A stretch of 40,519 nucleotides of DNA from a virus (IMGVR_UViG_2529293139_000011), one strand, 5' to 3'. Positions 1-34,880 are shown, counted from the first letter of the stretch. Notes: generated from the sequence alone by a model not told the origin. Made by a program: numbers and translations.

Positions 1-933
1 ATGGACAACGACAAAATTGATCAACACAGCGACGAAATTGAAGTTGAGAGCGAAGAAAAAGAGCGCGGCAAAAAAATAGAAATAGATGAAGACCGACTCC
101 CCTCCCGGGCGATGGCAATTCATGAGCATATCCGCCAGGATGGTGAAAAAGAGCTGGAACGCGACGCAATGGCGCTACTGTGGTCAGCCATTGCGGCGGG
201 TCTGTCGATGGGCGCTTCGTTACTGGCAAAAGGGATATTTCAAGTCGAACTGGAAGGTGTGCCGGGCAGCTTCTTGCTGGAGAATCTCGGTTATACCTTT
301 GGTTTTATTATCGTCATTATGGCCCGCCAGCAATTATTTACCGAAAATACCGTGACTGCGGTACTACCCGTCATGCAAAAACCGACAATGAGCAACGTCG
401 GCTTACTTATACGGTTATGGGGCGTCGTGCTGCTGGGTAATATTCTCGGGACAGGTATTGCGGCGTGGGCATTTGAATATATGCCTATCTTCAATGAAGA
501 AACTCGCGATGCATTTGTCAAAATCGGCATGGATGTGATGAAGAACACCCCCAGCGAGATGTTTGCCAACGCGATCATTTCCGGCTGGCTGATCGCCACT
601 ATGGTTTGGATGTTTCCTGCAGCGGGTGCGGCAAAGATTGTGGTGATTATATTGATGACCTGGCTTATTGCCCTGGGTGACACCACCCATATCGTGGTCG
701 GTTCTGTTGAAATCCTCTATCTGGTGTTTAACGGTACGCTGCACTGGAGCGATTTCATCTGGCCCTTCGCACTACCTACTTTAGCGGGGAACATCTGCGG
801 CGGCACCTTTATCTTCGCGTTAATGAGTCATGCACAGATTCGTAACGACATGAGCAATAAGCGTAAAGCAGAAGCACGCCAAAAAGCAGAACGTGCGGAA
901 AACATTAAGAAAAATTATAAAAACCCGGCATAA
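1..933 (+). CDS. yfdC: Inner membrane protein YfdC (formate/nitrite transporter family); host gene flanking the prophage
   Basis: 310-aa ORF starting at ATG at position 1; product recognised as E. coli YfdC with multiple hydrophobic segments; sits immediately upstream of argW as in E. coli K-12. Confidence 0.85.
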   Translation: MDNDKIDQHSDEIEVESEEKERGKKIEIDEDRLPSRAMAIHEHIRQDGEKELERDAMALLWSAIAAGLSMGASLLAKGIFQVELEGVPGSFLLENLGYTFGFIIVIMARQQLFTENTVTAVLPVMQKPTMSNVGLLIRLWGVVLLGNILGTGIAAWAFEYMPIFNEETRDAFVKIGMDVMKNTPSEMFANAIISGWLIATMVWMFPAAGAAKIVVIILMTWLIALGDTTHIVVGSVEILYLVFNGTLHWSDFIWPFALPTLAGNICGGTFIFALMSHAQIRNDMSNKRKAEARQKAERAENIKKNYKNPA

Positions 934-1008: not shown

Positions 1009-1083
1009 GTCCTCTTAGTTAAATGGATATAACGAGCCCCTCCTAAGGGCTAATTGCAGGTTCGATTCCTGCAGGGGACACCA
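1009..1083 (+). tRNA. argW: tRNA-Arg (anticodon CCU)
   Basis: 75-nt sequence GTCCTCTTAGTTAAATGGATATAACGAGCCCCTCCTAAGGGCTAATTGCAGGTTCGATTCCTGCAGGGGACACCA; acceptor stem GTCCTCT/AGGGGAC, anticodon loop CT-CCT-AA, T-arm GGTTCGATTCC, 3' CCA. Confidence 0.9.
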
Positions 1084-1178: not shown

Positions 1179-1244
1179 TTGACAGCCGCACTCCATGACG
1201 GGTAAAAAGTGGATAAAATAATTTTACCCACCGGATTTTTACCC
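1179..1244 (+). promoter_or_regulatory. Putative intS promoter and arm-type binding-site cluster (TTGACA at 1179-1184; GGGTAAAAA at 1200-1208; TTTTACCC at 1222-1229; TTTTTACCC at 1236-1244)
   Basis: Three copies of the TTTTACCC motif (one inverted) packed into the 45 bp directly upstream of the intS ATG, with a -35-like hexamer just before them. Confidence 0.4.
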
Positions 1245-2402
1245 ATGCTCACCGTTAAGCAGATTGAAGCAGCAAAGCCGAAAGAAAAACCATACCGCCT
1301 TCTCGATGGTAATGGCCTGTACCTTTATGTCCCTGTGTCAGGGAAAAAGGTATGGCAGCTTCGCTACAAGATTGACGGTAAGGAGAAAATCCTGACCGTC
1401 GGAAAATATCCGCTTATGACTTTGCAAGAGGCAAGGGATAAAGCATGGACTGCGAGGAAAGAGATCTCGGTTGGCATCGATCCGGTAAAGGCGAAAAAGG
1501 CTTCGTCTAACAACAATTCCTTTAGCGCCATTTACAAGGAATGGTACGAGCACAAGAAGCAAGTCTGGTCAGTAGGATATGCAACTGAACTTGCAAAAAT
1601 GTTTGATGACGACATTTTACCTATCATCGGCGGCCTTGAAATTCAGGATATTGAGCCGATGCAACTGCTGGAAGTAATCCGCAGATTTGAAGATCGCGGT
1701 GCAATGGAGCGAGCCAACAAAGCCCGCAGAAGATGCGGCGAGGTTTTCCGTTACGCTATTGTCACTGGTAGGGCTAAATATAACCCGGCACCTGACCTTG
1801 CTGACGCCATGAAGGGATACCGCAAGAAAAACTTCCCGTTTCTTCCTGCAGACCAGATCCCGGCATTTAACAAAGCACTGGCAACATTTTCAGGAAGCAT
1901 CGTATCGCTCATTGCGACCAAAGTTTTACGCTACACAGCCCTCAGAACAAAAGAGCTTCGTTCCATGCTATGGAAGAACGTCGATTTTGAAAACAGGATT
2001 ATCACCATCGACGCCAGTGTGATGAAGGGACGCAAAATTCATGTGGTTCCTATGTCAGACCAGGTAGTTGAACTTCTCACTACGCTAAGCTCAATCACTA
2101 AACCAGTGTCAGAGTTTGTTTTTGCCGGGCGCAACGATAAGAAGAAGCCAATCTGCGAGAACGCGGTATTACTTGTGATCAAACAAATCGGCTATGAGGG
2201 TCTGGAAAGCGGTCACGGATTCAGGCATGAATTCAGCACGATTATGAACGAGAACGAATGGCCTGCTGATGCTATTGAAGTGCAACTGGCACATGCCAAC
2301 GGCGGATCTGTGCGCGGGATTTACAACCACGCTCAGTATCTCGATAAGCGCAGAGAAATGATGCAGTGGTGGGCAGACTGGCTTGATGAAAAGGTGGAGT
2401 GA
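1245..2402 (+). CDS. intS: Tyrosine-type site-specific integrase (prophage integrase IntS)
   Basis: ORF 1209-2402; start moved to the ATG at 1245 (MLTVKQIEAAKPKEK...), which gives the 385-aa length I recall for K-12 IntS; adjacent to the tRNA att site. Confidence 0.85.
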   Translation: MLTVKQIEAAKPKEKPYRLLDGNGLYLYVPVSGKKVWQLRYKIDGKEKILTVGKYPLMTLQEARDKAWTARKEISVGIDPVKAKKASSNNNSFSAIYKEWYEHKKQVWSVGYATELAKMFDDDILPIIGGLEIQDIEPMQLLEVIRRFEDRGAMERANKARRRCGEVFRYAIVTGRAKYNPAPDLADAMKGYRKKNFPFLPADQIPAFNKALATFSGSIVSLIATKVLRYTALRTKELRSMLWKNVDFENRIITIDASVMKGRKIHVVPMSDQVVELLTTLSSITKPVSEFVFAGRNDKKKPICENAVLLVIKQIGYEGLESGHGFRHEFSTIMNENEWPADAIEVQLAHANGGSVRGIYNHAQYLDKRREMMQWWADWLDEKVE

Positions 2403-2555
2403 TCCACCTTAGCCACTATCGAAGAGCACAAAACCTTGCAATCCAGTACAAAGCTTTGTTTGTCTCAGTTTTGTCTCATCAACCACAGCAAGTCATCGAT
2501 CGATTGAGACTTGGATGATAGACTTCATGCCTTTGATTATTAGCTGATAAAAGAA

Positions 2556-2918
2556 ATGTTAAAGCTATTTGCAAAGTACACCTCGATTGGTGTGCTGAAC
2601 ACACTTATACACTGGGTGGTTTTTGGTGTATGTATCTATGCCGCGCATACAAACCAGGCTCTTGCAAACTTCGCAGGTTTCGTTGTGGCTGTGAGCTTTA
2701 GCTTCTTCGCGAATGCAAAATTCACATTCAAGGCATCGACTACAACGATGCGCTACATGTTATATGTCGGGTTCATGGGAACACTGAGTGCTACTGTTGG
2801 ATGGGCTGCTGATAGATGTTCACTTCCTCCAATTGTCACTCTTGTCACCTTCTCCGCCATCAGCCTGGTGTGCGGTTTCGTCTATTCAAAGTTCATTGTC
2901 TTTAGGGATGCGAAATGA
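2556..2918 (+). CDS. gtrA: Bactoprenol-linked glucose translocase (flippase) GtrA
   Basis: 120-aa small membrane protein ([25 protein letters not shown]...), first gene of a gtr operon; its stop overlaps the gtrB start. Confidence 0.85.
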
Positions 2919-3841
2919 AGATATCTCTTGTAGTTCCTGTCTTCAATGAAGAAGAAACGATACCAATTTTCTATAAAGCGGTACGTGAATTCGAAGAGTT
3001 GAAGCCATATGAAGTGGAAATTGTTTTCATAAATGACGGAAGCAAAGACGCTACGGAGTCAATCATTAACGCTCTGGCTGTTTCAGATCCTCTAGTGGTT
3101 CCGCTGTCATTTACACGAAACTTTGGTAAAGAACCAGCATTGTTTGCAGGGTTAGACCATGCAACAGGAGATGCTGTAATTCCAATTGATGTTGACCTGC
3201 AAGATCCGATTGAGGTTATTCCCCATCTGATTGAAAAGTGGCGGGCAGGCGCTGATATGGTGCTTGCTAAGCGATCAGACCGCTCAACCGATGGTCGTCT
3301 GAAGCGAAAAACTGCTGAGTGGTTCTATAAGCTCCACAACAAAATAAGCAATCCAAAGATCGAGGAAAATGTTGGTGATTTCCGGTTAATGAACCGTGAA
3401 GTTGTCGAAAATATTAAGCTCATGCAAGAACGCAACCTATTCATGAAGGGCGTACTGAGTTGGGTTGGAGGAAAGACTGATGTTGTAGAATATGTTCGCG
3501 CCGAACGCGTGGCGGGCAGCACTAAATTCAATGGCTGGAAATTGTGGAATCTAGCGCTTGAAGGGATAACAAGCTTTTCTACTTTCCCACTTCGTATGTG
3601 GACATATATCGGATTTGTTGTTGCAGCAGCTTCATTCTTCTATGGAGCATGGATGATTGCAGATAAAATACTCTGGGGAAATGAAGTGCGTGGTTACCCA
3701 TCGCTACTTGTCTCCGTACTGTTTTTAGGTGGAATTCAATTAATTGGAATAGGCGTGCTCGGGGAGTACATAGGCAGAATTTATATAGAGGTTAAGAATA
3801 GACCTCGTTATATCATAAAGGGCAATAAAAATGATATTTAG
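2915..3841 (+). CDS. gtrB: Bactoprenol glucosyltransferase GtrB (GT2 family)
   Basis: 308-aa [23 protein letters not shown]... with GT2 DXD-type motifs and C-terminal TM helices; overlaps gtrA and the following gene. Confidence 0.85.
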
Positions 3842-5510
3842 GAACAGACATACTCTTTTATCTATATTCGCTATTTTCATGTTGGTATTTCTTGTTGCAT
3901 TAAATACACCAATGCACTCTGATGACTATAGTTATTACTCACGAGGATTGGGGCTTGATGCGCACATTGCAAATTATATGCACTGGAGTGGGAGGATTGT
4001 AGCAGATTACGTATCTACCGGGATGTTGTCGATTGAGGATCATACCCTTAAGGCCCTCGTCAACTCTATAGGTGTAACATCACTTATTGTTCTCATTGCT
4101 GCAATACCTTCTCAATTATGTAAAGTTGAAATCAAACCATTAGTATTAATTGTTGTTTTTGCTTTATATTGGTCATGTAACCCAAATCTAGGACAGAACT
4201 CGTTCTGGGTTGTAGGAAGCGCGAATTACGCCTGGACTACACTATTTGTTTTATGTTTCATCTATTATTTTTTGAAGTGGATTGAAAACCAAAATACGAC
4301 TAAGATAGTTTCGTTATTTATTCTTGGTTTAATAGCAGGCTGCTCAAACGAAAATACCGCTGTAACTATAGCTCCATTGACAGTTGTTGTTGCAATCTCT
4401 TTATTTTACTTTAAAAAAATAAGATGGCAATATGCTTTATTACCAACGATCGGTGTCATTATTGGTTCTGTGACAATTATTCTTTCACCAGGAAACGCAG
4501 CAAGGGCGAAAAATATTGCGTTCGTTGATTGGTATGCAATGCCGTTAGGTGAGAGGCTAATAGAGCACTTTACTCATAGGTTTTGGTTTGCTTTCACATC
4601 CGCATGGCTTGTAATTGGGCTGCTGGTTATCTGTTCAATTGCATCATATGTTTTTTATCGAAGAAAACTACTTTCATTTTCTAATGCTTCATTATTTGCA
4701 TCAATCTCGTTTTTTGGGTGCTTCCTGCTTGCTAATGCCGCATTGGCTGGTGCTCCATACACTCCTCCGCGATCTTTTAGCATAGGGTTCTGTTTCCTTT
4801 TACTTTGCTTCTCCTGCCTTTTCACTTGGATAAATCAACAGGATGGCAAGATAAAAAGCACTTTATCTTACGCTATTTTATTAGTTTCACTAATTAATTT
4901 CATTGGCTCATATTATTTCGTTTATTCCGCTTATAAAAGAACAACGATCCAGCAGACACTTAGGGAGTCGTCGATTAGAGATGGTAGGAGCAATGGTTTG
5001 AAATCTATTTCTATCCCTGATTATTTCTTTACGCATCTTAAGAATTATAACGATAGATATGATAGATTTCATAATGAGGGAAGCTATGGCAGATACTATG
5101 GTATATCCAAAGCGCCATTACAAAAAGCAACCTTTGACTATTCTGGCATAGCATATAAACCAGTTTACAGTAAAGATGTGCCTCTATACGAGCGCGATAA
5201 TATCAAGTCTATTTTCATGTCACCGCAACAACCATTCATCAGTGGGACATTGATACTTGAGATTTCTAACAATATTGATGGGATTTTATCTCGTGATGGT
5301 GGCGTGAAAATCTTCTTACATATTTTAAAATCAGATGGAAGCATCGTTAACAAGGACTTTTTCCCAACTACTATAGAGCTTAATGGTAGATTCTATGCTG
5401 GAGTTGATCTTTCTGGAGTTGATATAAATGACATTAATAGCCTATTGATTGGTACATTCAATATTCATACGCGTCATCGATATACACAAACACAGATAAA
5501 GATTAATTAA
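3831..5510 (+). CDS. Serotype-specific O-antigen glucosyltransferase, GtrC-like (polytopic membrane N-terminal part plus a soluble C-terminal domain)
   Basis: 559-aa ORF in the third position of the gtr operon; strongly hydrophobic N-terminal ~380 aa, AT-rich codon usage typical of acquired gtrC genes; this family is highly variable so exact specificity is unknown. Confidence 0.65.
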
Positions 5511-5513
5511 TAC

Positions 5514-5532
5514 AGGCCCGAAAGGGCCTTTT
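5514..5532. terminator. Hairpin between the convergent gtrC-like and tailspike genes (GGCCCGAAAGGGCC followed by TTTTT on the plus strand)
   Basis: GC stem with GAAA loop plus a T-run directly after the gtrC-like stop; the tailspike stop lies on the other side. Confidence 0.6.
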
Positions 5533-5534
5533 TC

Positions 5535-7409
5535 CTAGCTGTGCAATGAGATATCCGCACTAACGATAGATGCACTTAGATTTACCAGCACCCCTGCCGC
5601 TGTATAGAATCGCAATATAACAGATTTAGCTAAAAACTCAGGTAGAATAATTGGCCCTCCGGTTGAAGCGGGCCTTATAGTACTGCTTCTAATTGCGTTG
5701 ACTGTAACATGACTTTTAAATGCAACAGTAATCTCTCCAGTCCCCGTGATAGTTGCTGATGCTATAAGTTCAGATGAATCAGTGATTGTTATTGCGCTGT
5801 TATTACTAACTATACGTGCAAACCTATCAAAATCTACCAATAAATCGGTGACATTATCCAGGCCCTGGAAGATTGATGCTCTCGGGGTGCTGATGTTATA
5901 TACAGATATTCCTGACGCTGCGGCTGTGAATCTTATAAATGAACTCGTAGAAGCACCGCCATACAATGTTTCTGAAACTCCATCGATAGTTAATTGTGAG
6001 CAACTACCAAGCAAGAAGGCATTGCTGTCACCGCGGCCCAAAATCTTTATATTTGATACTCGCGACCGTTGGCAATTTAAGGCAATTGGCACAAGTCCGC
6101 CAGTTGTAGGAGTAACCCCAGCCTTAACTTCCATTTCAAACGATACGCCATCAATAACCAATCCAGTCAAAAGCGAGCTGTCATCAGGCGTACCAGCTAG
6201 TCCATATACTGCGTTGCCGTCATATTGTATAACTCTAACATGGCCATTTTTTATCTGACATTGATTGATTACACCATCGGCGGTATTAAGTGCTATCCCC
6301 GCATTAGCTCCGTTTATTATGAAATCATCAACAATTACACGGTTACTTTTCCTTATATTAATGCCCCACATGTTCCTGTCATTAATATTGTTATATCTGG
6401 CAATAATATTTTTAACTATGATGTCTTCACAGAAATCGCCGGCTCCCTGTATTACCGATACATAGACAGCATGCCTTCCCAAATCCCCTTTATCTGCATC
6501 TGCTTCAAAATTAACGCCATCAACGATAATTCTCTTACAGCCACCAAGCAGAACTCCATAGCCGCCAGCAACAACATCAGAGTGATAACGATTCCCTCTT
6601 GAATAGGTATCTCTAATAATACTATCTACACATCGTTGCAAGTACACAGATCCCGTATAGCCGTATGTATCCGACCCGACAATCGATATATTGCTGCTGT
6701 CTGTAAAGGTAATTGCATAGGCAACATTGTTTCCCGTAGCTGGCCCATTTGTTATTAAACCGATACAGCGAAAATCTTTTATTTTTACCCCGGTTTTCGT
6801 GTCCGCAAAAAGAGCCTGACCTTTATTGATGTTAGCTACTGAGCCGCCAAACCCTTGTATTACCTGGTAATCATCATTGATAGTTATTCTAGAATCTATC
6901 GTTTGTGCATCTGATATTTGTACATCTTGGCCATTTGAAAGAACTGCTTGAATACTGTTAGCGTAACCATCTGGTCGTCGGTCGATAGCATCTAAATCTA
7001 GCTGCAGTGTCCCGCGGTGGTTTGTGCCTATTAACTGCGAACCGGTTGATGATATTAAATTTTGCTCGAGCTGATCAGGGTCATACTTCAAAACATTAGG
7101 ATAATAAAACTGCTGCGCACCATATGCATCATAAACAGCCATAGAATGGCCTTGCACAGTTACGAACTTGGCAATCTGTCCGTTATATACCGGGTAACCA
7201 GCAGCGTTAATGATGATTGGTTGCGATACAGGAACGTGAGAGCCGTCTTCGTTCTCCACATAAACCTGAATCTGGTTTTCAGGATTTACAGGATCAGTGT
7301 CAATTTTACCGATATAAATTTTGCCATTGGCAACCGCTTTAAAAGAACGAGCCATAGTGAAGAGTTGCGAAGGCATGCTTACCACAACATTTGCGGTGAT
7401 ATCTGACAT
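5535..7409 (-). CDS. Tailspike protein (P22 gp9-like head-binding domain plus a divergent beta-helix receptor-binding domain)
   Basis: ORF 5535-7457; start moved to the ATG at 7409 ([43 protein letters not shown]...), preceded by GGAG; the N-terminal ~110 aa match the conserved P22/Sf6 tailspike head-binding domain. Confidence 0.85.
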
Positions 7410-7433
7410 TTCATTGCTCCAGACGAATGATAT

Positions 7434-7459
7434 GATGCAACCATGATGTGATTGCATAC
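7434..7459. promoter_or_regulatory. Imperfect palindrome (ATGCAACC...TGATTGCAT) in the divergent mnt/tailspike intergenic region; candidate operator
   Basis: TGCAA / TTGCA inverted half-sites ~11 bp apart between two divergent start codons. Confidence 0.25.
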
Positions 7460-7530
7460 CGAAATGGTACTATTGAGTATTTATCCAGTAGGTTACGATG
7501 CCATTCCACCCAACTGGTGAGGCATCAAGG

Positions 7531-7791
7531 ATGTACAGCAAATACGACGAGGCGCAGTTTCACTTGAGACTTCCGCATGAACTCCACGCGAAAATTAAGC
7601 AGCGTGCGAAGATGAATAACAGGTCGCTGAACTCAGAGATAATTGCAGCGATTGAAGAATCATTGGCTAAACAAAGCTCTGCATCAGTTTACATTGACGA
7701 TGCAGAGCGTATGGCAGAACAACAATCTGATATGGTTAAGAAAATTGTCTTTGATACGCTCAAAGAGCTATATAAAAAAGACAGCAGCTAA
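7531..7791 (+). CDS. mnt: Mnt-like ribbon-helix-helix repressor (Arc/MetJ family)
   Basis: ORF 7498-7791; start placed at ATG 7531 after AAGGA; C-terminal part (...DAERMAEQQSDMVKKIVFDTLKELYKK) resembles P22 Mnt. Confidence 0.7.
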   Translation: MYSKYDEAQFHLRLPHELHAKIKQRAKMNNRSLNSEIIAAIEESLAKQSSASVYIDDAERMAEQQSDMVKKIVFDTLKELYKKDSS

Positions 7792-7808
7792 CCATCCGTG
7801 GCTTTCCG

Positions 7809-10544
7809 TTACTTCTGGTTATCATCACTGTTCATCCAGTACATGATGCCTAGCCTTGATATGGTTTTCTTATCTGATTCTGGAAGTGAGTTGTAAAACG
7901 AGCGCCAAGCAGAAGAGCGTCTTACAGTTGTATCAACGATGCTTTCTGGTGCTTGTTTTACTGCCAGCCTTGCTGCTTTCTGGAATTCTGGTGAGCTAAT
8001 TAGCTTTTCTGCAGATTCAATTGATTCAGCGCCGCCCATCGCCCTGATTTTGCTGGCGACTTTTGCCCCAATTTCTGACCCAGCAACAGCACCTACTGCA
8101 CTGAACGGTCCTGACACAGTTGAACCAACCGCAGTGCCAATGCGTTGGGCATGGTTAGCAACAAATTCATTTGCCGCAGTGACGCGATTAAACCGTTTGA
8201 CGAACTCGTTTAGTCTTCCTGTAGTTATCTCGTAAGATTTTGCATCTTTGATAGCCTTTGCGACCTTATATACATCGTTCAGACCTGACATAGTCTCTTT
8301 TGGTAAATGTCGGGCAAGATTGCGCATCTGCCCGTTTGCTAACATGTTTTGATACCAGTCAGCAAACCCCGCAGGATTAAAATCAGCGCCACGTTTTCCG
8401 TTCGAAAGCATATCCCGAAGACCTGTTCCCAGTAGCTCGGTTCTTAGCTTCCTGGACGGCGTGTTTTGCATCAATTCACGAAATCCTTTGGCATCGCCTT
8501 TCGACATTGCCTGTAGTGCTGTAGTTGCTTTGCGAGAAACATCACCGTTCAGCGTTCTGCCAGTTAGATTAATCATTTGCTCTTCCATGCTTTTTCGCAT
8601 CTGAACAAGCCTCTGAGCAACTTCAAAATCACGTAATGCATTTGTCTCTGACAGCGCCGCCTTTTGATCATCGGCGAGCGAACCGTAAAGCCTCGATAAA
8701 GCAGCGCGATCAGCATCTTTATATGGTCCAGAATTCTTATGAAGTGCATCACCAACAAGTCGTCGTTGCTTATTGAGATTTGCATAAGTTAATGCGCCGT
8801 TCTTGCCTGGATTAACTGCCCGAAAGACTCTCTTTTCAATAGGGTCAAGGTTTTTCATCCCGCCAAGATCTTCTGCCACCTGTTTGAGCATTGACCTTGT
8901 TGATGGTGCATCAATTTTTGCACCTGCAGGCATCGCCTTTTCAACATTGCGATAAAGCTGGTCGCTTCGTTTCATCAGCGCAGACATTCTTCCATTGACC
9001 GTATCAATAAACTTGTCGCTCATACCAAGAGCATCTTTTGCACCGGAAACGCGATCAATTATCTCCCCCGCGCCCTGTGCTAGCTGCCTGATTGCTTCAT
9101 TTTCCTGCACCTGTAGAGCAGAACCCGCACGGGACTTGATTGCTTGCTCAACTGCCTTGTATTGCTCGTTCCCGGAAAAGTGTGAAGGGAGTAATGAATC
9201 AACATTAAGCCTTTCAGCAGACTCCAGAACTTCAGCCTGAGGATTGATATCTAGTTCATCAAGCGATGAAGCGAGATTTGGCCTTTTTTGTGCTGCTACT
9301 GTGCGAACGACTTCCTCTGGGTTCCTCGTCGCAGGCGTCATTGGTACACCTTGTGCTACTCTTGCCTCTGCGGCATGAACCGCAGGACTTGTTGCTGCAG
9401 CGGCATCACCGGAGAATGGTGATGCTTCTGTTGCCGCAGTGGTCGCTCTCTGTGCAGATGTTTTATTGCCACTAATTATATTTGATGCACCACGAACACC
9501 ATGGGTAACGCCATTTATCAGGCCATGCGTAGCAATGTTAAGTCCGGCATTAATAGCGGCATTTTCGGCAAAATCACCCCGTTGATTCGCCGCGTCAGCG
9601 AGAGAACCAATGACCATGTTTCCAGCTACTCCTGCTCCAGGAACAAGATAACCGCCTATTGACTCTCCAGCTTGCGCATAAGGGTCTGTCGGTCGATCTA
9701 CTGGACGATAGACATCGTCCAAAACCTTGGGGCCACCAAGCCCCTGGCTGATTGCATTAATCAGACTTGCGCCACCCTGCAATACGTCAAATGGTATGTT
9801 TACCAGACCACGACCAGCCTGCTCTGCAATTTGCCCTGCACTTTGACCACCTGTGAGCCAATCGCCAGCTTGTTGCATCAATGATGGTTCTTCACGTGCT
9901 GGTTCATTATTGGCCTGATTAACTGTTTGTTGCTGAACAGGTTTCGGTGCGACAGAACTTACGGGTTGAGGTGGCTGCTGACTGGCTGCCTGCTGCTCAA
10001 TCTGAGCAAATGGATTATTTGGGTCTGACTGCACACCTGATGCCGATACTTGTTCGGATGACTGTACTTCCAGTTGTGCAAACGGGTTGTTAGGGTCTTG
10101 CTGAGGATGTACCTTTGCAGAGGTGGCGCGCTGTTCGACTGTTGAGTCTGTCACCGGGTCACCCGCCCATTGAGCAAAGCGATCATCAACGTAACCGCGG
10201 CCTTCAGGTCCTGGCGTATATTCACCACGCTTTGCCTTCATAACGTTGCCGGGACCGTCGTGATAAGCCTGAAGAGCGTCACGCCAGTTACCAAACTGCT
10301 GGTACATCTTTGCCAGATAGCGCGCGCCAGCGTCAGCCTGATATTCGGGGTTTTGCATTTGCTCATCGGTATAACCCATATCACGCCATGTCCCAGGCAT
10401 GACCTGAGTCAATCCTACAGCCCCGGCGGAGCTTACTGCGGCAGGGTTGTAAGAAGACTCCTTGGCACCCAGTGCAGTCATCAACCCTTCTGGCACACCG
10501 TAACGTGCGCCAGCCTGCTCTAACAAATCACGGTAATTAGCCAT
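7809..10544 (-). CDS. Ejection (DNA-transfer) protein, gp16-position homolog, with an N-terminal lytic transglycosylase (SLT) domain
   Basis: 911-aa ORF, last gene of the ejection-protein block; N-terminus contains SLT-like motifs ([26 protein letters not shown]); middle part is Gln/Pro/Ala-rich and low in complexity. Confidence 0.65.
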
Positions 10545-11876
10545 TTACTGCCCCAAAGATGGAAGATATCCGTAGCGATTAATGAAGTCGATTGACAGCT
10601 CGGGGTGCTGCTTCAGGTAATCTATAGAAGCCTGAGGCGCTTCCACTCGCTTGATACCGTTTTGCTGAACGTACTTACCAACCGCCTCATTACGCTTCTG
10701 GTTGAGCGTGTTCAGGATGACGCCAGCGTTGCGACGAAAGGACTCCTCGCTCTGCGAGTTCTGCAGCGAACCAACAGCCTGGTCGAGCTTTTTGCCCTCG
10801 GCATCAGAAAGTGCGCCCATGCCTCGCATGGCCTGAACCGCTGTCAGGTATGCTTGGGATTTAAAGGTATCAAGTCGTGCCTGAGTGTCTGCAGCCTGTG
10901 AGCCTGGAACGTTGGGGATTACTCCACGTAAGCCTGTAATGCTCTTAAGTGAAGGAGAACTAACGATATCGTTCAGAGTGAACATGCTGGTTGTGAGGGT
11001 GTTGATGCCGTCTTTGTAGCCATCATTTAGCGCTTGCTGCTTCTGCTGCAACTGCTGGTTGTTGGCTGCTATGCGGCTCTGTATTTCCTGGCGCTTCAGG
11101 TCGTTAGTTTCTGCTGATAGCATCCGGTCAAGGCGCTTATTTTCGTTGTTAATGCGGTTTGTTTCTGCGTCCAGATTAATGCGCTGCTGACCTAAATTCG
11201 CCTGGATATCTTGCCCGCGCATTGTGATTGCCTGATTCCGAGCGGCGGTTTGCGAATCCAGATCCTGACCGCGCATGGTAACCTGGCGACCCTGCATTTT
11301 ATCCTGTAGGTCAAAGTATTTTTCGGGTCCGAGACTGTTCATCCCCAGGTGATCGACAAATTCGCCGAACTGCCGCGGGTTCTGTTGGTACATCTGAGCG
11401 ACGTCCTGAGGATTAACGCCAACACGAGCTAACTCACCGGCGTTGTTTTGCAGCCATGATTGCATTGCTTCTGGAGACGATGACGCAAGGCGTGCGCCAG
11501 CCGCTAAGGTGCCGATAGAATTACGCTGATCTTCATCAATGAATCCCATGCCTTTACGAACGGATTCTATCTGGTCTGGATATTGAGTAGCCAACTGACG
11601 CAAAGCACCGCGATCACCAGACGCATAAGCATTAGCGTACGCCTGCTGAAATTCTTTCTGCCGCTGAGCCTGCTTTTCCTGCTGAAACACCCCTGCAATA
11701 CCTGAAAGGCCTTGCAAAGCAGTCAGCCCAACATTGTTAGCGCCTGAACGCTCAATATCATTGTTCTGCCTGATAAGCTGAAGCGTATTGCCGATGTCAT
11801 TTACGCTCGGAGCGTTTGAGTTGACGCCGCCGATACCAGCCAACAATCCGCCGTTTGTTCCTTGCCAAGTAGCCAT
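10545..11876 (-). CDS. Ejection protein, gp20-position homolog
   Basis: 443-aa ORF in synteny with P22 gene 20 (gp14-gp7-gp20-gp16 order); Gln/Asn-rich, coiled-coil-like. Confidence 0.6.
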   Translation of the reverse strand: MATWQGTNGGLLAGIGGVNSNAPSVNDIGNTLQLIRQNNDIERSGANNVGLTALQGLSGIAGVFQQEKQAQRQKEFQQAYANAYASGDRGALRQLATQYPDQIESVRKGMGFIDEDQRNSIGTLAAGARLASSSPEAMQSWLQNNAGELARVGVNPQDVAQMYQQNPRQFGEFVDHLGMNSLGPEKYFDLQDKMQGRQVTMRGQDLDSQTAARNQAITMRGQDIQANLGQQRINLDAETNRINNENKRLDRMLSAETNDLKRQEIQSRIAANNQQLQQKQQALNDGYKDGINTLTTSMFTLNDIVSSPSLKSITGLRGVIPNVPGSQAADTQARLDTFKSQAYLTAVQAMRGMGALSDAEGKKLDQAVGSLQNSQSEESFRRNAGVILNTLNQKRNEAVGKYVQQNGIKRVEAPQASIDYLKQHPELSIDFINRYGYLPSLGQ

Positions 11877-11885
11877 GATTACCCC

Positions 11886-12578
11886 TTAAAACAACGAGCC
11901 AAGCAATCCGATACCAGCACCAATGCCAGCGCCCCAAGGCGTTGATGTTCCCAAAAGGCTGGCAAGACCTGCACCGGCAATCGCACCGGACGTTCCGCCG
12001 CTAATTGCTGTCTGAAGACTTGATGGTTTGTTGGCATTAGCAGCGGCAAGAGCTGCGCTTTGCTGTGCAATGCTGCTCATGTTGTTGGCGTACGTCTGCC
12101 CGGCGTTTGCCTGACCTTGCAGAGCACCAAGCCCAACGTTTGCCAGATTGTTGTAATTGCTCATCTGGTTTGATAACCAAGACTGACCGAGAGTCGGCGC
12201 GATCGTAGCCAGTTGATTGCTTGTGGCTGTCGAACCAAGTCCTCCCGTAGCCTCCGCAGCAGCAAGACTCTGGTAACGCGCCTGACCTGCAAGGTCTTTA
12301 TACTGCTGAGAGTTGTAATACTGATTAAGTGCCTGCCCCTGACCTTCTAAACTGGAAAGGTTCTGAAGCTGGTTAACATACTGCTCCGCAAGCGGCGTGA
12401 ACGGAGCAAGGTTTTTCATGATCGTCTGCCACTGCTGATTTTGCAGGTCTGCGGCATACTTCTGGGCTTCTGCTGCATACTTTGCGCTTTTATCAGAGCT
12501 ACCACCTTTCCCGCCTTTTTCATGGCACCAAGGTTCCTCGCCGCGCAGTTTTCTGCCCAGCTTAAATGCATATAACAT
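11886..12578 (-). CDS. Ejection protein, gp7-position homolog
   Basis: 230-aa ORF in synteny with P22 gene 7; Gly/Ala-rich hydrophobic C-terminus. Confidence 0.6.
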   Translation of the reverse strand: MLYAFKLGRKLRGEEPWCHEKGGKGGSSDKSAKYAAEAQKYAADLQNQQWQTIMKNLAPFTPLAEQYVNQLQNLSSLEGQGQALNQYYNSQQYKDLAGQARYQSLAAAEATGGLGSTATSNQLATIAPTLGQSWLSNQMSNYNNLANVGLGALQGQANAGQTYANNMSSIAQQSAALAAANANKPSSLQTAISGGTSGAIAGAGLASLLGTSTPWGAGIGAGIGLLGSLF

Positions 12579-12580
12579 GG

Positions 12581-13036
12581 CTATCTCCCGTGATTCAGGA
12601 AGTCGATTAGTTCTTCGCGTGTGGCGCTGTAAAAAGTCACGTCATCCACGCCTTTAAAGTATTTCTTGATGGTTCCGACACGCTTAAGGCCAATCATTGC
12701 GCAGTAAATCTGCCCGTGGCGGAATTTGCGTGCGGCGAACGATGTGACGCACTGAACGGTGGTGTTAGTCAGAATGTATTGCCAGAAAGCCATCCCGATT
12801 TCCTTGCTGAAGCCGCGAATCTCTGGCAGGTACATGGCGTGGCAATCGAATGTAAGCGGCTGAATCTCCTGATAGTAAACAATGCCGCCAAACTGACCGT
12901 GCACGTTAACCTCAAAGTAACGGCATTCAGGCTTGTAGTCGTATCCATCACCGTTGTTGCTACCGGCGATAATGTCAGGGTGATTTCCGACTGCTTCGAT
13001 CAGGTCGATGTTTCGCGTTGGTTTGAACTGAATCAT
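12581..13036 (-). CDS. gp14-position protein (head/ejection-associated)
   Basis: 151-aa ORF between the tail needle and the gp7-like gene; assigned by synteny only. Confidence 0.5.
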   Translation of the reverse strand: MIQFKPTRNIDLIEAVGNHPDIIAGSNNGDGYDYKPECRYFEVNVHGQFGGIVYYQEIQPLTFDCHAMYLPEIRGFSKEIGMAFWQYILTNTTVQCVTSFAARKFRHGQIYCAMIGLKRVGTIKKYFKGVDDVTFYSATREELIDFLNHGR

Positions 13037-13884
13037 TACTGCTCCGCGATTATCTTGATGGTTGTGGCAGTAAACGCCGCACCATTTGACTGAATGGTTA
13101 ACGTGCTGCCATTTGTGGCAAGAAAGCCGTCTTTATCCACGCTGAAGAACGTAGCTAACAGGATGTTGTCGGTTGTTGTCGCCGCATTACGACTGCTGAC
13201 CAACGTGTCAGGAACAGAGCCGGAAAATGTTAGCTGCATTGACCTGTTGGCGGTTCCGCTGGGCCACGTCCCGACAATCGACAGCTTGAAGAACAAGGTT
13301 TTGTTCTCGTTGAACACAACCATCTTGTTGTTAACGGTGTCGAAGAATGGTGCCAACGAGCCGGATGACGGCGTGAGCGTTTTCAGTAGGCTAACAAGGT
13401 TGGTCGGCGCTGTCGGAATGGTTACTGATACGCCAGAGTAAACAACCTCTGACTTCTTGCGCGTGGTTGCATAATCCAGAGCATCAATGCGCGATTCATG
13501 ATCTGAAACCTGCGATTCCAGCGACTGAACTCTGGTATCAAGCGACGCAATATCGCTTTCATTCTGAGCGATTCGCGTTTCATGTTCCTGAAGAGTTGAT
13601 TCTGCCTGGCTGATTCGCTCCTCATGATTAACAAGCGTTGCTTCCGCAGCAGAAATTCGCTGCTCATGGTCAGCGAGAATCACATCCTGCTCATCGTTCC
13701 TGACCTGTGCATCATAAGCGCCCTGTCCGGCCTCGTTGGCCTTGTTAGCCACGTTACCAACATCAGTACCTTGCGCGATAACGTACAGCAGATACGACTG
13801 CGAGAAGATATTGCGTGGAAGGACTGATGTATCGAGCCGCGTAGCCTGGATGATTACCGGCACATTGAGATTCGAATCCGCCAT
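13036..13884 (-). CDS. Tail needle protein (gp26-like N-terminus and coiled coil, with a C-terminal knob domain)
   Basis: 282-aa ORF; N-terminus [43 protein letters not shown] matches P22 gp26; heptad repeats in the middle; extra C-terminal domain as in Sf6-type needles. Confidence 0.8.
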
Positions 13885-15302
13885 TACTCAATCCTTATCT
13901 GGCAGCCAGACAGAGTGACAGGTGACTTCGTGATAATGCGCAATTTGAAGCCGACATTTTTCCTGATGCGCCCTACTCGCTTCCACAAAACACGTTTGTC
14001 GTAAACGAACGGTTCATTCTGCTCAATCATCTGCTCACGCCCGTAATTGATGCCGTCAGTGGTTGCAGAGAGGAACAGGCGGTCGGCGTACTGAGCTACG
14101 CCAGTGGATGATTCCACCTCCAGATCGAAGCATCTGGCGTTATCCGCTTTGAACAGTGGAGTAAACAGCAGGTGTTCCTGTTGCTTGTCGTACTGGCTGC
14201 TGATATCGAACTGCAGTTTCCCGGTAACAGATTCCAGCTTATCGCCGCACGTTATCTGATTGCCTTCGTAAATGAAGTCGATAGCGCGGTACACATCGTC
14301 ATATAAGCCTGTTTTCAGCACACACCATTGCGGACCATTGGCGCTTGAAGATGCGTCGTACACGAGGACGTGGCGCGGAAGGTGGATAATCAGCAGTTCA
14401 TGCGCATCAAATCGCAGCGATTCCATCACACCATCAGCCAGTTCATCAGCAGTGTAGGAGCGGAGGATTTTCTCAATGCTCGCGCTGGCGATTGGTGATA
14501 CCTGACCGGAACCGATGATGTACACAGACGGCGCACCTGTTGCCGGATTGCTGATGAACGCATAAGAATCGGCGAACGGCGTTTTGCAGTAAGTTCCGGC
14601 AATGCCTTTCTGCACCATCAGCGATGGTTGTGCAACATACAAAGCAGCCCCAACAGTGGTTGCACCAGTCAGGGAGAAATATTCAATCGTCGACGAACCA
14701 AAGCAGACTATGAAGTCTCGCCATGTACCGATGCCGATGATTCCGTCAGGCTGAGACTCTGCGCGATATTGTGCGCTGTAGCGGTCAGGATGCGATTCGT
14801 CTTCAAGGTCAGTGATAAACCATGAATCAGTGCCGTCTTTTGACCACGCATAACGCCCACGTAAACGAGTAATGTCGCGAACCGAACCTAACTCATACTG
14901 CGTGAATCCGCTGTCTGTAGGCCAGTTTGAGACGGTTTTAACCGTGCCATCATAGCGGTATTCGACCAGTTGCCCGTTAACACCTACCGCCTGTGATGTC
15001 CGACCATGTGCCATTGATACGCGACCACTTCCGGCAACATCACCGACTTCACTTTCGCCTTTGTACAGCTTGCCACCACACACGCGATAAACAGCATTCT
15101 GCGCCATGTTGTACTCGACGCCACGCGATACGCCGTTCACATCAGAACGTTTGGCAATGCCCGGGAATGAGCGAAGATATCCGCTGCTGTTCAGGATTTC
15201 TTTGGGTGTAGCCAACATATTCACTGGCAGATAGTCGATATAGTCGGCGTTTCTGAAGTCTTTGCCGACACCTTTCATAAGCGGAAGTTGCTGAATAGGC
15301 AT
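13884..15302 (-). CDS. Tail hub protein (gp10-like)
   Basis: 472-aa ORF, same length and position as P22 gp10. Confidence 0.75.
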
Positions 15303-15310
15303 TTATTCAC

Positions 15311-15793
15311 CTATGCGTTTGGGATATCGCCATCAATCAGAGGGAGATCGCCTGGATAATATCGGTCAGATGTGAACACGTCATATTTATTACCCTGTCC
15401 TACAGGAAAATCTCCACGTCGTCGCATTGAAGGAACAACCAGAGTGTCGGTCATCAAGGCATCATATGAGCGTTGGGCGTTACTGAGAACTTGCGGAGTT
15501 GGTTCAAGGCTGTAATCAGATAGCATTCTCAGCAATAACTGATAGCCTACTGCGTGTTTGTATTTTCTTGGAAGACCTGACTCATCATCTGGTAATGGCT
15601 GCTCATCTCCAGTTGAGAAAGCGTAACCAATGTCGCCGGGGTTAATCATCCACTCGGACATCATATCTTCCAGATCATTTACACCATCTTCAATTGATTG
15701 CGGCTCAACATCAGTCAGCGATGCATTAGAAGCAATAGCAAACTTACGAAGCGCAAAAAGGACGATCTCACCCTTTGTCAGTACTGTTGCCAT
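15311..15793 (-). CDS. Tail accessory / head-completion protein (gp4-like)
   Basis: 160-aa ORF downstream of the coat gene; size and position as P22 gp4. Confidence 0.7.
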   Translation of the reverse strand: MATVLTKGEIVLFALRKFAIASNASLTDVEPQSIEDGVNDLEDMMSEWMINPGDIGYAFSTGDEQPLPDDESGLPRKYKHAVGYQLLLRMLSDYSLEPTPQVLSNAQRSYDALMTDTLVVPSMRRRGDFPVGQGNKYDVFTSDRYYPGDLPLIDGDIPNA

Positions 15794-15953
15794 TGTCTGC
15801 CGCCTTACGACCTCGCTTACTGGTCGGTTTCAATTCATCAACTGAGGCAACAAAGCCCAACTTTTCGAAAAACTGGAAGTCTTTTTCTGCGATAACGGCC
15901 TGTACATGCCCGGATTCGTTATCTGCGGCAAGGAATACACTCATGCGATCCAT
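15768..15953 (-). CDS. Small hypothetical protein between the coat and gp4 genes
   Basis: 61-aa ORF in the operon gap; no recognisable motif. Confidence 0.3.
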   Translation of the reverse strand: MDRMSVFLAADNESGHVQAVIAEKDFQFFEKLGFVASVDELKPTSKRGRKAADNGNSTDKG

Positions 15954-15995
15954 ATTTTTTCCTTAAAACATAAAAGGGGCGTAAGCCCCTTGTTA

Positions 15996-17267
15996 TTACG
16001 GATTACCGAAGAACTGACCGCCCATGTGAGGGTTAAAGCACACATATGCAGGCAGTAAGTCAAAGCGCATTTTTTGCACGTTGGCATCGCCATCTGCGTA
16101 TTTATGTACGCGGATGGAGAAACCTTCATATGTTGCAACAGCAGAATCAATACTGTGCAGTTTCGGCAGTGGGATAGAGCCAAGTCCACAGAAGAACTTG
16201 TTATAGAACAGGTTTGGCTTCATTGTCTGGCTAGCAGTGCCTACCACAGATACGGCATCGCCTGCCGCTACCTGACGACTTACAGAGTTGTACTGCGGGT
16301 TTGTAGTGTCATAAATCGGAACACCAGAAAGCGTAACCGTCACATCGCCACTGCTGTCTGAATCAGCATCAGCAGTAACCGTTGCTGTGAAGCTAATTGG
16401 TGTGGCTCCGTTATACAACGCCTGTTTGGTCTGCTGTTGCAGCCAGTAGGTATTGGTGAATTTAACCTGATCACCAGCTTTCAGGAAACCTGTAACGCTG
16501 GCTGTCGCCCCGGTCAATGTTACAGTGAACTGGTATGAGTCTTTAACTGCGTTATAGGTAACAGTTGGCTGTGTTTTGACTGTCAGTGTTCCGCCAAATG
16601 CCCCCTGCGTACGAGAGGCAAGCCCATTAGACATCAGTGCGCGAATGCCGCCAAAATTGGTTGGGATCTGCGCATTCTCCCATGCAGTACGAACCAATTG
16701 ATCTGAAGCGTGCAAACCAGTCTGCGCATCAGCAAGTCGCTGTGCAGACCATGGATCCATTACAGCATAGTTTTCACCTTCATTAACGCCGAGGTCTTTC
16801 AGGAAAGATGCCGTCTGCGCAACATCAGACCATTTGGTGATTGGAGTATTGGGGCTACCAAGTGACAACGCACCGTTATTCATCATGAAGTGAGCAAGCT
16901 CTGTTTCAAGGTCGGTAACGATTCGCTGGCGAACCGGCGCGAGAATTTCCTCCAGTTGGTTAAGCTTGATCGCTTCCTCCAGTTGCTGATATTCAACAGC
17001 AACAGTGATGTAGTTACCTACACGCCCCGTAGCTTTACCTGAGATCAGGTTGTTTTTATTTTGCCCTGAAATATCACCAGTGGGAGTACGGAGGGATGAG
17101 AATTGATGCGGACGTTTAAAGCTAACGCTATCGCCAGTGCTGGAGTTGATTTCACCTGCCAGCAACTGACGGTCTACGGTTTTCGCCAGAACTAAATCTG
17201 ACATAAAACCCGGAAGGAATTTTTTCAGAACGATTTGACTGACGTTACTATCGAGATTGTTAGGCAT
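15996..17267 (-). CDS. Major capsid (coat) protein, P22/Sf6 type
   Basis: 423-aa ORF MPNNLDSNVSQIVLKKFLPGFMSDLVLAKTVDRQ... recognised as an Sf6-type coat protein; follows the scaffold gene. Confidence 0.85.
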   Translation of the reverse strand: MPNNLDSNVSQIVLKKFLPGFMSDLVLAKTVDRQLLAGEINSSTGDSVSFKRPHQFSSLRTPTGDISGQNKNNLISGKATGRVGNYITVAVEYQQLEEAIKLNQLEEILAPVRQRIVTDLETELAHFMMNNGALSLGSPNTPITKWSDVAQTASFLKDLGVNEGENYAVMDPWSAQRLADAQTGLHASDQLVRTAWENAQIPTNFGGIRALMSNGLASRTQGAFGGTLTVKTQPTVTYNAVKDSYQFTVTLTGATASVTGFLKAGDQVKFTNTYWLQQQTKQALYNGATPISFTATVTADADSDSSGDVTVTLSGVPIYDTTNPQYNSVSRQVAAGDAVSVVGTASQTMKPNLFYNKFFCGLGSIPLPKLHSIDSAVATYEGFSIRVHKYADGDANVQKMRFDLLPAYVCFNPHMGGQFFGNP

Positions 17268-17278
17268 TTATCTTTTCC

Positions 17279-18163
17279 TTATTCGATTTTTGCGCCGGGG
17301 CATAATTTGTTGAATTCGTCTTGTTTCGCATCAGCACCGCCACCACGTACTTCCGGCTCTGGCTTGATGGCTTTCTTTGGTTTTGGAGCAAGGCTTACCT
17401 GTTTGCTAATCTGCCCCAAGAGGAATGCTGCGCGAATTGGATCTGTCTCAGCGGCTACACGCTGGCGTAATTGCTGGCTCTTACCTAAGCCATAGGCGAG
17501 TAGTTCAGAGCCTTCGTCTGCACAGTGAATGATGATTTCCTGCTGAATTGGTGGTAGCTCACTAAGAACAATGGCTTCCATTTCCTGATAATCTTTCACA
17601 GGAAGTTTGGCTGCCCGTTGTTTATGCGCTTCTACCCTTTGCTGGAAACGCTGCTGGTATTCCTGTTGCTGACGTAGTTTTTGTTGCTGCTGCTGTTCGA
17701 CACGGCCTTTTTTCTCATGCCAATCAGTCAATGCCTGTTCAAACGCCTGTTCGTCATAATCACACGACTCAAGAGTCGGTTTTGGTGGAATAGCGTCTGG
17801 TTGTGGTTGCTGATGTTCCGCAGGCTTGGCTAATGCTTCCTCAAGCTGGCGGCGCAACTCACGGTTTTCTTTCTGTGTTTCTTTGAAGCCTTTGCGAAGA
17901 TCCTTCACCCATTGCGGTGCAGGTTGCCCGTCAATGTGATCATCATCGTCAGCGTTAAGCTGAATTTCTTCATCACCAATACGCAAGGCGTAATCTTCTG
18001 GTGTCTCTTCGGTTTTTTCAGGCTCAGTTGCCACCTCTTTACCGTTGTCATCCTGGCTTTCATTTTCAGGCTGTGACTCTGTTTGGATGATGGTTTCTTC
18101 TGCATTTTCCTGTGTTTCAGACAGGTCAATAACCTGACCGTCGATGATCAGTTCGTTTTCCAT
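17279..18163 (-). CDS. Scaffolding protein
   Basis: 294-aa acidic, helical, Gln/Glu-rich ORF between the portal and coat genes. Confidence 0.75.
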   Translation of the reverse strand: MENELIIDGQVIDLSETQENAEETIIQTESQPENESQDDNGKEVATEPEKTEETPEDYALRIGDEEIQLNADDDDHIDGQPAPQWVKDLRKGFKETQKENRELRRQLEEALAKPAEHQQPQPDAIPPKPTLESCDYDEQAFEQALTDWHEKKGRVEQQQQQKLRQQQEYQQRFQQRVEAHKQRAAKLPVKDYQEMEAIVLSELPPIQQEIIIHCADEGSELLAYGLGKSQQLRQRVAAETDPIRAAFLLGQISKQVSLAPKPKKAIKPEPEVRGGGADAKQDEFNKLCPGAKIE

Positions 18164-18176
18164 TGATTACTCCTGG

Positions 18177-20303: not shown

Positions 20304-20305
20304 GT

Positions 20306-22703: not shown

Positions 22704-23183
22704 TTAAATGATTTGCCAGTCTTCAGCCATCAGGTCGCCAATGGATGGAACCCATGTAGCAAGGAGGTTCTGTGAGTTTTTCAATACAAGCGTGTCATTG
22801 AAAGTTGGCTCGCCAACATATTCGCCAAAGCCATAACCCAACGCAGACGCTAATTTTTCCCCTTTCACGAGATAAACAAACTGGTCTTTCCCATTCCATC
22901 CTGCCCGCTGCAAACTTTTGCCCTGTTTTAACGCTTCCATGGCAAGGCCGAAACTTAGTCCTGATACCGGACGATAAGCCTTTTCGAATACTTCTTTTGG
23001 ACTCCAGCTAACGTAGCCATCAAAGCGATCGGTGTTAGGTTTTCCGCCATCCAGATATTCAACCAGATAGCCTTCGTCCTCGCCGTTTTCTCCGGCAGGA
23101 AGCTGCCAGCCACGAAAATCGTTATATGCCTGTCTCGTCATCGGAAAGGCGTTAATCAGTTTTACGCCAATATGCTGGGTCAT
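22704..23183 (-). CDS. DUF2829-domain protein (C-terminal half resembles the family that includes Thoeris anti-defence Tad2) with an N-terminal extension
   Basis: 159-aa ORF; the C-terminal region EALKQGKSLQRAGWNGK...WVPSIGDLMAEDWQII matches the DUF2829 pattern as I recall it (K.G....R..W, W.PS..DL.AEDW); lies between the lysis cassette and terminase. Confidence 0.5.
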   Translation of the reverse strand: MTQHIGVKLINAFPMTRQAYNDFRGWQLPAGENGEDEGYLVEYLDGGKPNTDRFDGYVSWSPKEVFEKAYRPVSGLSFGLAMEALKQGKSLQRAGWNGKDQFVYLVKGEKLASALGYGFGEYVGEPTFNDTLVLKNSQNLLATWVPSIGDLMAEDWQII

Positions 23184-32710: not shown

Positions 32711-32727
32711 TCACGCAAGGGGCGCTT

Positions 32728-34791: not shown

Positions 34792-34852
34792 GGAGCAATG
34801 TCGCTCGTAACTAAACAGGAGCCGACTTGTTCTGGTTATTTGAAATCTTCTT

Positions 34853-34880
34853 TGCCCTCCAGTGTGAGGGCAATTTTTTT
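34853..34880 (+). terminator. Intrinsic terminator in the early-left operon (TGCCCTC-cagtgt-GAGGGCA followed by ATTTTTTT)
   Basis: 7-bp GC stem plus T-run about 12 nt upstream of the next gene's RBS. Confidence 0.6.

Follow-up and report, generated by a model that had tools for sequence, protein, structure and literature searches.

The question raised by a 40,519-nt stretch of viral DNA (IMGVR_UViG_2529293139_000011; this whole stretch is called the window below) is what the third gene of its gtr operon encodes, and whether that gene and the convergent tailspike gene next to it concern the same receptor (coordinates in Table 1). A preliminary description, made from the sequence by itself, had read the region as a serotype-conversion module in which conserved gtrA and gtrB precede an unusually long and divergent gtrC-like gene. 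Open reading frame (ORF) calls and Pfam matches place the features at or near the positions given there, and a gtrABC serotype-conversion operon does stand beside a tailspike of the O-antigen type. We consider it very probable that gtrABC and the tailspike gene form a lysogenic-conversion cassette, in which periplasmic glucosylation of the O-antigen, dependent on undecaprenyl-phosphate (Und-P)-glucose, would block re-adsorption.

The 559-amino-acid (aa) product of the third gene scores 209 bits with Pfam PF19528 (DUF6056; cut-off 27), at E=1.5e-61 and over positions 4–435 of the 442 in the profile; precomputed Pfam annotations of public contigs label this family GT_STM0557_N. Using tblastn against 50,697 phage records, we found a full-length match to gene 20 of Salmonella phage epsilon34 (551 aa; 31% identity over 559 aa, E=5e-60), which is annotated as GtrC in one record and as a DUF6056 family protein in the RefSeq copy. 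The two proteins align end to end, C-terminal domain included. GtrC of phage Hf4s matches over the membrane core only (31% over 412 aa); that protein has 410 aa and no C-terminal beta-sandwich. Both relatives also match PF19528. A link to Salmonella Typhimurium STM0557 is suggested by the precomputed Pfam label and by the 30–40% identity between epsilon34 gp20 and STM0557 (PMC2629481). The gtrC-like label is thus borne out, in that the gene is related to functional GtrC proteins, namely epsilon34 gp20, Hf4s GtrC and the STM0557 family. The comparison set proposed in the preliminary description, which named GtrII and GtrV among others, finds no support: BLASTP against Shigella GtrI, GtrII, GtrIV and GtrV gave no significant match (the sole match was GtrI, E=1.0), and none of the four matches PF19528. 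Instead, GtrII belongs to PF14264, which has no match in the window GtrC, and Pfam gives no match for GtrV and only sub-threshold ones, to PMT_2 and DUF2142, for GtrI and GtrIV. As judged from these sequences, 'GtrC' is a positional and functional label that covers unrelated families, and the window gene falls into the epsilon34/STM0557 family.

Comparison within this family changes how the gene looks. The 35 aligned homologues are 513–601 aa long, most of them 539–557 aa, so that 559 aa is a normal length for PF19528; 'unusually long' is true only relative to the Shigella GtrC proteins (417–506 aa). The AT-richness from which horizontal acquisition had been argued is real with respect to the surroundings, gtrC having 36.2% G+C content (GC) against 47% for int, 45.5% for gtrA, 42.3% for gtrB and 41.7% for the receptor domain of the tailspike; elsewhere in the prophage GC is 48%. 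It is not special to this gene, however, as six characterised gtrC genes have 31.8–38.0% GC, and those of the Shigella phages, at 32–33%, are equally AT-rich. Length, divergence and AT-richness all cease to be peculiar once gtrC is compared with its true family.

The three genes form a single operon, with gtrA first, gtrB second and a polytopic membrane protein third, and this operon converges with the tailspike gene across a common terminator. The terminator hairpin is perfect and lies between the stop codons of gtrC and the tailspike gene, its plus-strand copy being followed by a T-run. GtrA is 98% identical to GtrA of Hf4s, 91% to GtrA of SfII and SfV and 58% to GtrA of epsilon34, and GtrB is 85–88% identical to its counterparts in epsilon34, SfII, SfV and Hf4s (85% for Hf4s), in agreement with the conservation already noted for both. 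The gtrA product is predicted to be a small membrane protein with the assigned role of flipping Und-P-glucose. NCBI annotates the identical gtrC of Escherichia coli PK5074 from an ATG further downstream (window 3879), giving 543 aa. The evidence favours the 559-aa start, because an AAGGG Shine–Dalgarno sequence lies 8 nt upstream and a complete first transmembrane (TM) helix needs the longer start. Among the loci of GtrC homologues, taken from one genome per species (n=57), gtrB ends directly upstream on the same strand in 31, with gtrA as well in 28, and a further nine have a GtrB-like gene elsewhere within 5 kb. This arrangement, together with the operon coupling to gtrAB in the window, suggests that GtrC uses a polyprenyl-phosphate-linked donor. 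Salmonella enterica strain s1 (CP191473.1, 4962–6500) has an orphan 512-aa PF19528 gene with no gtrA or gtrB within 5 kb; it adjoins a hexapeptide-repeat acetyltransferase gene and a tail-fibre gene, and may use gtrAB encoded elsewhere.

Since a PDB sequence search with the GtrC family profile gave no match, the fold was taken from an AlphaFold2 model built with the 35 homologues (predicted local distance difference test, pLDDT, 92.8; predicted template modelling score 0.92). In the model, helices extend as far as residue 387 and residues 450–557 form a beta-rich domain, consistent with the earlier reading of a membrane protein with a large C-terminal soluble domain. Searched with Foldseek against the viral models of BFVD, it gave one useful match, to a protein of an Oenococcus phage, and none to the GtrC of known phages. 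The modelled membrane part has a glycosyltransferase C (GT-C) fold. Taken with hydropathy and the positive-inside rule (R4 and R6; KKIR 195–200; RRK 272–282), the helices of the model predict 11 TM helices, with the N-terminus in and the C-terminus out. This topology would place the C-terminal domain and all invariant polar residues on the periplasmic side. In the membrane part, D31, D32, Y35, R55, D59, N173, E174, N175, R225 and R314 are invariant in the 35 homologues (22–48% identity). D31–D32 follow directly after TM1 (helix 6–24) and, with R55 and D59, are predicted to lie in the first periplasmic loop; N173–E174–N175, R225 and R314 would also face the periplasm. GT-C enzymes such as ArnT, PglB and PMT are marked by two adjoining acidic residues in their first extracytoplasmic loop; D31–D32 provide such a pair here, probably with a catalytic role. 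Compared to GT-C enzymes that use polyprenyl-phosphate sugars (PMT1/2/4, ALG12, AftB, ArnT and PglB/STT3), GtrC has 6–12% sequence identity and, unlike them, carries as its soluble domain a small, family-specific beta-sandwich.

Conservation differs from one part of the protein to another. Mean identity to the window GtrC is 57% in the first periplasmic loop, 34% in the membrane core, 29% in the linker, where P396 and Y437 are invariant, and 19% in the beta-sandwich. The C-terminal 172 aa gave no Pfam match at E up to 5 and matched phrog_2009. An exhaustive search of 1.84 billion representative proteins found the C-terminal domain in only 39 clusters, nearly all of them proteins of about 530–590 aa, and at the same C-terminal position (about 30 representative clusters). 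These results suggest that the beta-sandwich is family-specific and fast-evolving, as would fit a role in acceptor selection. The 'long GtrC' is thus no anomaly but what long members of the epsilon34/STM0557 family normally look like: a GT-C enzyme whose beta-sandwich, predicted to be periplasmic, is specific to the family.

The tailspike, as described before, keeps a conserved head-binding N-terminus (PF09008) and continues into a different beta-helix domain, the order found in P22-like tailspikes. The head-binding domain is 91–94% identical to those of CUS-3 and other coliphage spikes and 87% identical to that of epsilon34. Sequence matches in the PDB are to P22 and Sf6 and cover residues 1–114, or 1–203 for Sf6. 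The approximately 510 residues of the receptor domain are unrelated by sequence to any P22-like spike of known structure, and gave only a sub-threshold NosD match in Pfam at E up to 5. With the AlphaFold2 model of this domain, the best Foldseek matches were the tailspikes of Sf6, Det7 and HK620 (probability 1.00, 10–12% identity). An ORF in the 150-kb genome labelled Campylobacter phage B15 shares 61.5% identity with residues 113–624, and ORFs from a 160-kb and a 58.5-kb Enterobacter phage share 49–51%. In a search of 5.8 billion proteins, the same receptor domain was found behind four N-terminal arrangements, PF09008, PF18668 (TSP1/gp66 type), PF03906 (T7 tail-fibre type) and one with no recognised domain; one such homologue, from E. 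coli, has a PF18668 N-terminus and is 96% identical. Shuffling of N-terminal and receptor modules is well known for tailspikes. MG065650.1 (150 kb) and OR786095.1 (40 kb), the best phage matches of the receptor domain, bear the names 'Campylobacter phage B15' and 'Staphylococcus phage MBBL139', and these host labels seem doubtful for enterobacterial-type tailspike domains that are 41–62% identical.

We extended the analysis to other assemblies that carry the operon. An identical GtrC protein is encoded in 11 contigs from independent samples (10 places retrieved), and across these contigs and PK5074 each of gtrA, gtrB and gtrC has at least 99.6% nucleotide identity. In these assemblies the receptor-domain type of the window always lies beside gtrABC, in two alleles (99.3–100% and about 90% nucleotide identity), and the cassette occupies three chromosomal sites, argW, beside bioA-ybhB and beside torT. 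The closest relatives of GtrC (45–49% identity) keep the layout of gtrAB, gtrC and convergent tailspike. Divergence of GtrC and of the receptor domain runs parallel in three of four lineage comparisons (49% versus 37%, 46% versus about 40%, and 66% versus 52%). Relative to phages and prophages with other cassettes, nucleotide similarity extends through gtrB, fades in the first third of gtrC and resumes at about 7070, where the head-binding domain starts. The gtrC gene is inherited jointly with the receptor domain, the two making up a low-GC specificity cassette (about 3.3 kb) that is bracketed by conserved gtrAB and the conserved head-binding domain. Their strict co-inheritance across three integration sites illustrates well how a phage would carry receptor reader and receptor eraser as one exchangeable unit. 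A mosaic within gtrC had been considered on account of blastn alignments to loci L076 and L080 that run from upstream into gtrC as far as about 4370; it was dropped, as protein identity of 47–72% in aa 1–180 and 31–55% downstream amounts to a conservation gradient with no sharp junction. The P22-like prophages beside bioA-ybhB and torT (Logan contigs SRR18610096_76 and ERR1622139_47) have an additional HNH_3 endonuclease gene between the tailspike gene and mnt that is absent from the window.

The cassette is rare. Even by sensitive blastn it was found in one of 5,426 complete E. coli genomes, PK5074 (NZ_CP072802.1, 4471799–4485703), in which gtrABC is intact and 100% identical, IS1 splits the tailspike gene and the prophage is decayed. 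The O-antigen cluster of this strain (PK5074 75001–103000; locus 7712–20411 within it) is of the Wzx/Wzy type and the rhamnose type, with the order gne, galF, rfbBDAC, wzx, a gene for a DUF6337 protein (putative Wzy), four more genes, of which three are annotated as glycosyltransferases and one as a hypothetical protein, and gnd. No O number could be assigned to it from annotation or from matching genomes. This cluster is present in three of the 5,426 genomes, with 89.5% identity in the two besides PK5074, and distant blastn with gtrC and the receptor domain found no recognisable relative of the cassette in those two. A rare receptor explains a rare cassette. The decayed PK5074 prophage also holds an IS3 element, and its integrase is only 98.7% identical to the window integrase; set against 100% for gtrABC, this indicates a recombination boundary near the int–gtrA junction.

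What the cassette may do can be judged from known systems. In epsilon34, gtrABC (genes 22-21-20) and tailspike gene 19 follow the plan of the window: int, gtrA, gtrB, a PF19528 GtrC of about 550 aa, a terminator and a convergent P22-type tailspike; genes 20–22 have been assigned to the conversion of 3,15 to 3,15,34 (PMC2629481). The two differ in host, in O-antigen and in the tailspike receptor domain, which is unrelated, and the epsilon34 record places a putative attP (an argU-like sequence) between int and gtrA, whereas int in the window adjoins argW. Hf4s (E. coli 4s), an E. coli Lederbergvirus with a different tailspike, also has the order int-gtrA-gtrB-gtrC-tailspike; its lysogens carry one extra lateral glucose (Glc) at O-4 of N-acetylgalactosamine (GalNAc), as determined by nuclear magnetic resonance, and have lost Hf4s adsorption (10.1101/2021.06.09.447823). 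STM0557–0559, with a GtrC of family III, adds 1-4-linked glucose and converts O12 to O12-2 (PMC13505456), and deletion of family III gtrC in S. Pullorum removes the terminal glucose (PMC13505456; PMC3688519). The Shigella flexneri phages with GtrI, GtrII, GtrIV or GtrV share the same three-gene logic and the same type of spacer, with GtrA and GtrB 88–92% identical to those of the window, and have GtrC proteins without significant similarity to this one.

By analogy, we propose that GtrB would make Und-P-glucose on the inner membrane's cytoplasmic side and that GtrA would move it to the periplasmic side, where GtrC would attach glucose to one particular sugar in the repeat of the O-antigen. The active site would be built from the periplasmic loops, with D31–D32 as the likely catalytic or donor-binding acidic pair, and the beta-sandwich would most likely aid acceptor selection. 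The tailspike beta-helix would recognise, and probably cleave, the unmodified form of the same O-antigen, so that, after glucosylation in the lysogen, this phage could no longer re-adsorb, nor could other phages with the same receptor. Several points weigh against this proposal. At 31% identity, the nearest characterised GtrC is too distant for its specificity to be transferred, and the experimental support for conversion comes from relatives. The family is not strictly tied to gtrAB, since at 17 of the 57 homologue loci no gtrB lies within 5 kb, and one close GtrC relative (46% identity, L076) stands beside an unrelated receptor domain. Finally, a promoter scan upstream of gtrA (2403–2555) found no sigma-70-like site reaching 9/12 consensus matches, and expression in the lysogen is assumed.

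A GtrC-like enzyme could instead glucosylate a target other than the O-antigen, such as enterobacterial common antigen, capsule or lipid A-core, with a tailspike gene next to it by coincidence. The presence of PF19528 genes at 17 loci without gtrAB, and in diverse phyla, would allow for this, as would the two Salmonella GtrC families for which O-antigen modification went undetected (Davies et al., PMC3688519) and one PHROG match of the tailspike N-terminal region that is labelled 'colanic acid degradation'. Nevertheless, all three PF19528 systems with an assigned function (STM0557–0559, epsilon34 genes 20–22 and Hf4s) act on the O-antigen, at each of its three insertion sites the cassette comes with one and the same receptor-domain type, and the only complete genome that carries it has a rare O-antigen cluster. 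We therefore regard another target as improbable.

Whether the operon is active bears on a second alternative. The preliminary description had found a Salmonella-type Dam/OxyR switch not evident, and this holds. That switch has four GATC sites, in two pairs with 13 nt between the members of a pair, inside OxyR half-sites within about 115 bp upstream of gtrA (PMC2909390), and the phase-variable STM0557–0559 operon is controlled through four GATC and OxyR sites. The window spacer holds one complete GATC (2498–2501), with a second (2401–2404) overlapping the int stop codon 97 nt away, and its sequence and GATC list, compared with the criteria of PMC2909390, contain no paired-GATC/OxyR signature at 2403–2555. 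From position 2430 onward the spacer is about 84% identical in nucleotides to those of SfII, SfV and SfI. The operon could still be silent or non-functional in the lysogen, either as a hitch-hiking remnant or because it is expressed only under other conditions or through a phase switch not of the Dam/OxyR kind. The missing consensus promoter would agree with this, and some Salmonella gtr operons modify lipopolysaccharide only under constitutive expression (PMC3688519). However, the three ORFs are intact, with coupled starts and a good Shine–Dalgarno sequence, and gtrABC is conserved in the 11 assemblies. Its integrity in PK5074, despite decay of the tailspike gene and prophage, suggests selection, and the spacer resembles those of active Shigella converting phages. 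A silent operon thus seems about as unlikely as a different target. Least likely of all is the transfer of a sugar other than glucose through an altered nucleotide-sugar specificity of GtrB: GT2 polyprenyl-phosphate glycosyltransferases of similar architecture use other sugars, and ArnC and PgfS are weaker NCBIfam matches of GtrB, but these matches fall far below the cut-offs and GtrB is closely related to the GtrB proteins of the glucose-adding phages SfII, SfV, epsilon34 and Hf4s. In the window as a whole GATC is strongly depleted, with 95 sites against 167 ± 12 expected from dinucleotide-preserving shuffles, a count below all 100 of 100 shuffles.

Within the favoured reading of an O-antigen-glucosylating cassette, a narrower one is conceivable, although we think it rather doubtful. 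PF19528 GtrCs may share one regiochemistry, adding glucose at O-4 of a galacto-configured sugar, with the hypervariable beta-sandwich as an exchangeable module that reads the surrounding O-unit; in that case the present allele would mark a glucosylated subtype, so far unrecorded, of a rare E. coli O-antigen that contains rhamnose and GalNAc, and gtrC and the receptor domain would be a co-evolving pair. Epsilon34 adds Glc alpha-1,4 to galactose. The documented cases behind the O-4 reading are Hf4s and STM0557–0559, the latter with 1-4-glucose on galactose by family III assignment (PMC3688519). The broader proposal leaves the current understanding of a well-understood system in place and adds one more, rare allele to the catalogue of phage-borne O-antigen modifiers. 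The cassette is probably tied to a rare O-antigen type, which could bear on serotyping in that lineage and on the prediction of phage host range there.

Table 1. Features of the gtr–tailspike region and its flanks, in window coordinates
Feature	Coordinates	Strand	Evidence or remark
yfdC	1–933		window start, 5' of argW
argW, tRNA-Arg(CCT), prophage integration site (attL side)	1009–1083	+	ARAGORN, Rfam
IntS-type tyrosine integrase	1209–2402	+	Pfam Arm-DNA-bind_3, Phage_int_M, Phage_integrase; annotated intS in PK5074
int–gtrA spacer, presumed gtr regulatory region	2403–2555	+	153 nt; Shigella-phage type
gtrA, 120 aa	2556–2918	+	PF04138 E=1.8e-13; phrog_2224 E=1.5e-70
gtrB, 308 aa, GT2 bactoprenol (Und-P) glucosyltransferase	2915–3841	+	PF00535 E=1.2e-31; phrog_841 E=5e-167
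gtrC, 559 aa, predicted GT-C-fold glucosyltransferase of the PF19528 family	3831–5510	+	overlaps gtrB by 11 nt
gtrC membrane core, aa 1–387	3831–4991	+	invariant columns in 35 homologues, model helices, hydropathy, charge distribution
gtrC C-terminal region, predicted periplasmic, aa 388–559	4992–5507	+	conserved linker (P396, F435-D436-Y437) and variable beta-sandwich (aa 450–557)
Bidirectional intrinsic-terminator hairpin, AGGCCCGAAAGGGCCT	5514–5529	.	terminator scan positive on both strands
Tailspike ORF	5535–7457	-	real start ATG 7409 (MSDITANVV..., 624 aa) from homologues and gene calls in other assemblies
Tailspike receptor-binding domain, aa ~113–624, predicted right-handed beta-helix	5535–7073	-	AlphaFold2 pLDDT 91.6
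Tailspike head-binding (particle-attachment) domain, P22 gp9 type	7074–7409	-	PF09008 E=3.9e-67, residues 1–~115
mnt	7498–7791		the region of the preliminary description ended at 7530, inside this gene

The gene order yfdC-argW-int-gtrA is common to the window, PK5074 and Logan contigs L066 and L067. Structural and replication genes of the prophage are 95–97% identical to those of HK620, Sf6 and related P22-like coliphages; the prophage at argW is an intact HK620/Sf6-like element (P22-like, Lederbergvirus-type), with the gtr–tailspike region as the first cargo block 3' of the integrase. No second copy of the argW 3' end, as expected for attR, lies within the 40,519 nt, so either the right end of the prophage lies beyond 40,519 or the att core is short. 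An Rfam scan of the window returned tRNA only, and repeat scans of 2300–7900 gave nothing relevant.

Several genes elsewhere in the window deserve mention. A 159-aa ORF between the lysis and packaging regions (22704–23183, minus strand) contains a domain resembling Thoeris anti-defence 2 (Tad2; Pfam PF11195, E=1.8e-21), and its best PHROG, phrog_872, has no assigned function. A 129-aa ORF (32707–33096, plus strand) overlaps the end of the cI-like repressor gene (31994–32710), where exclusion morons linked to a repressor typically lie; Pfam gave no match for it, and its PHROG match is phrog_6534 (unknown function). Likewise, a 344-aa early-region ORF (34827–35861, plus strand) has no Pfam match and belongs to phrog_1376 (unknown function). 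At the position of the P22 gene 16 ejection protein, a 911-aa protein (7809–10544, minus strand) carries at its N-terminus an SLT lytic transglycosylase domain (E=3.3e-25). Its counterparts at homologous loci vary in form and include a 797-aa SLT+gp16 protein and a 1088-aa protein with Inj_translocase, SLT and gp16 matches.

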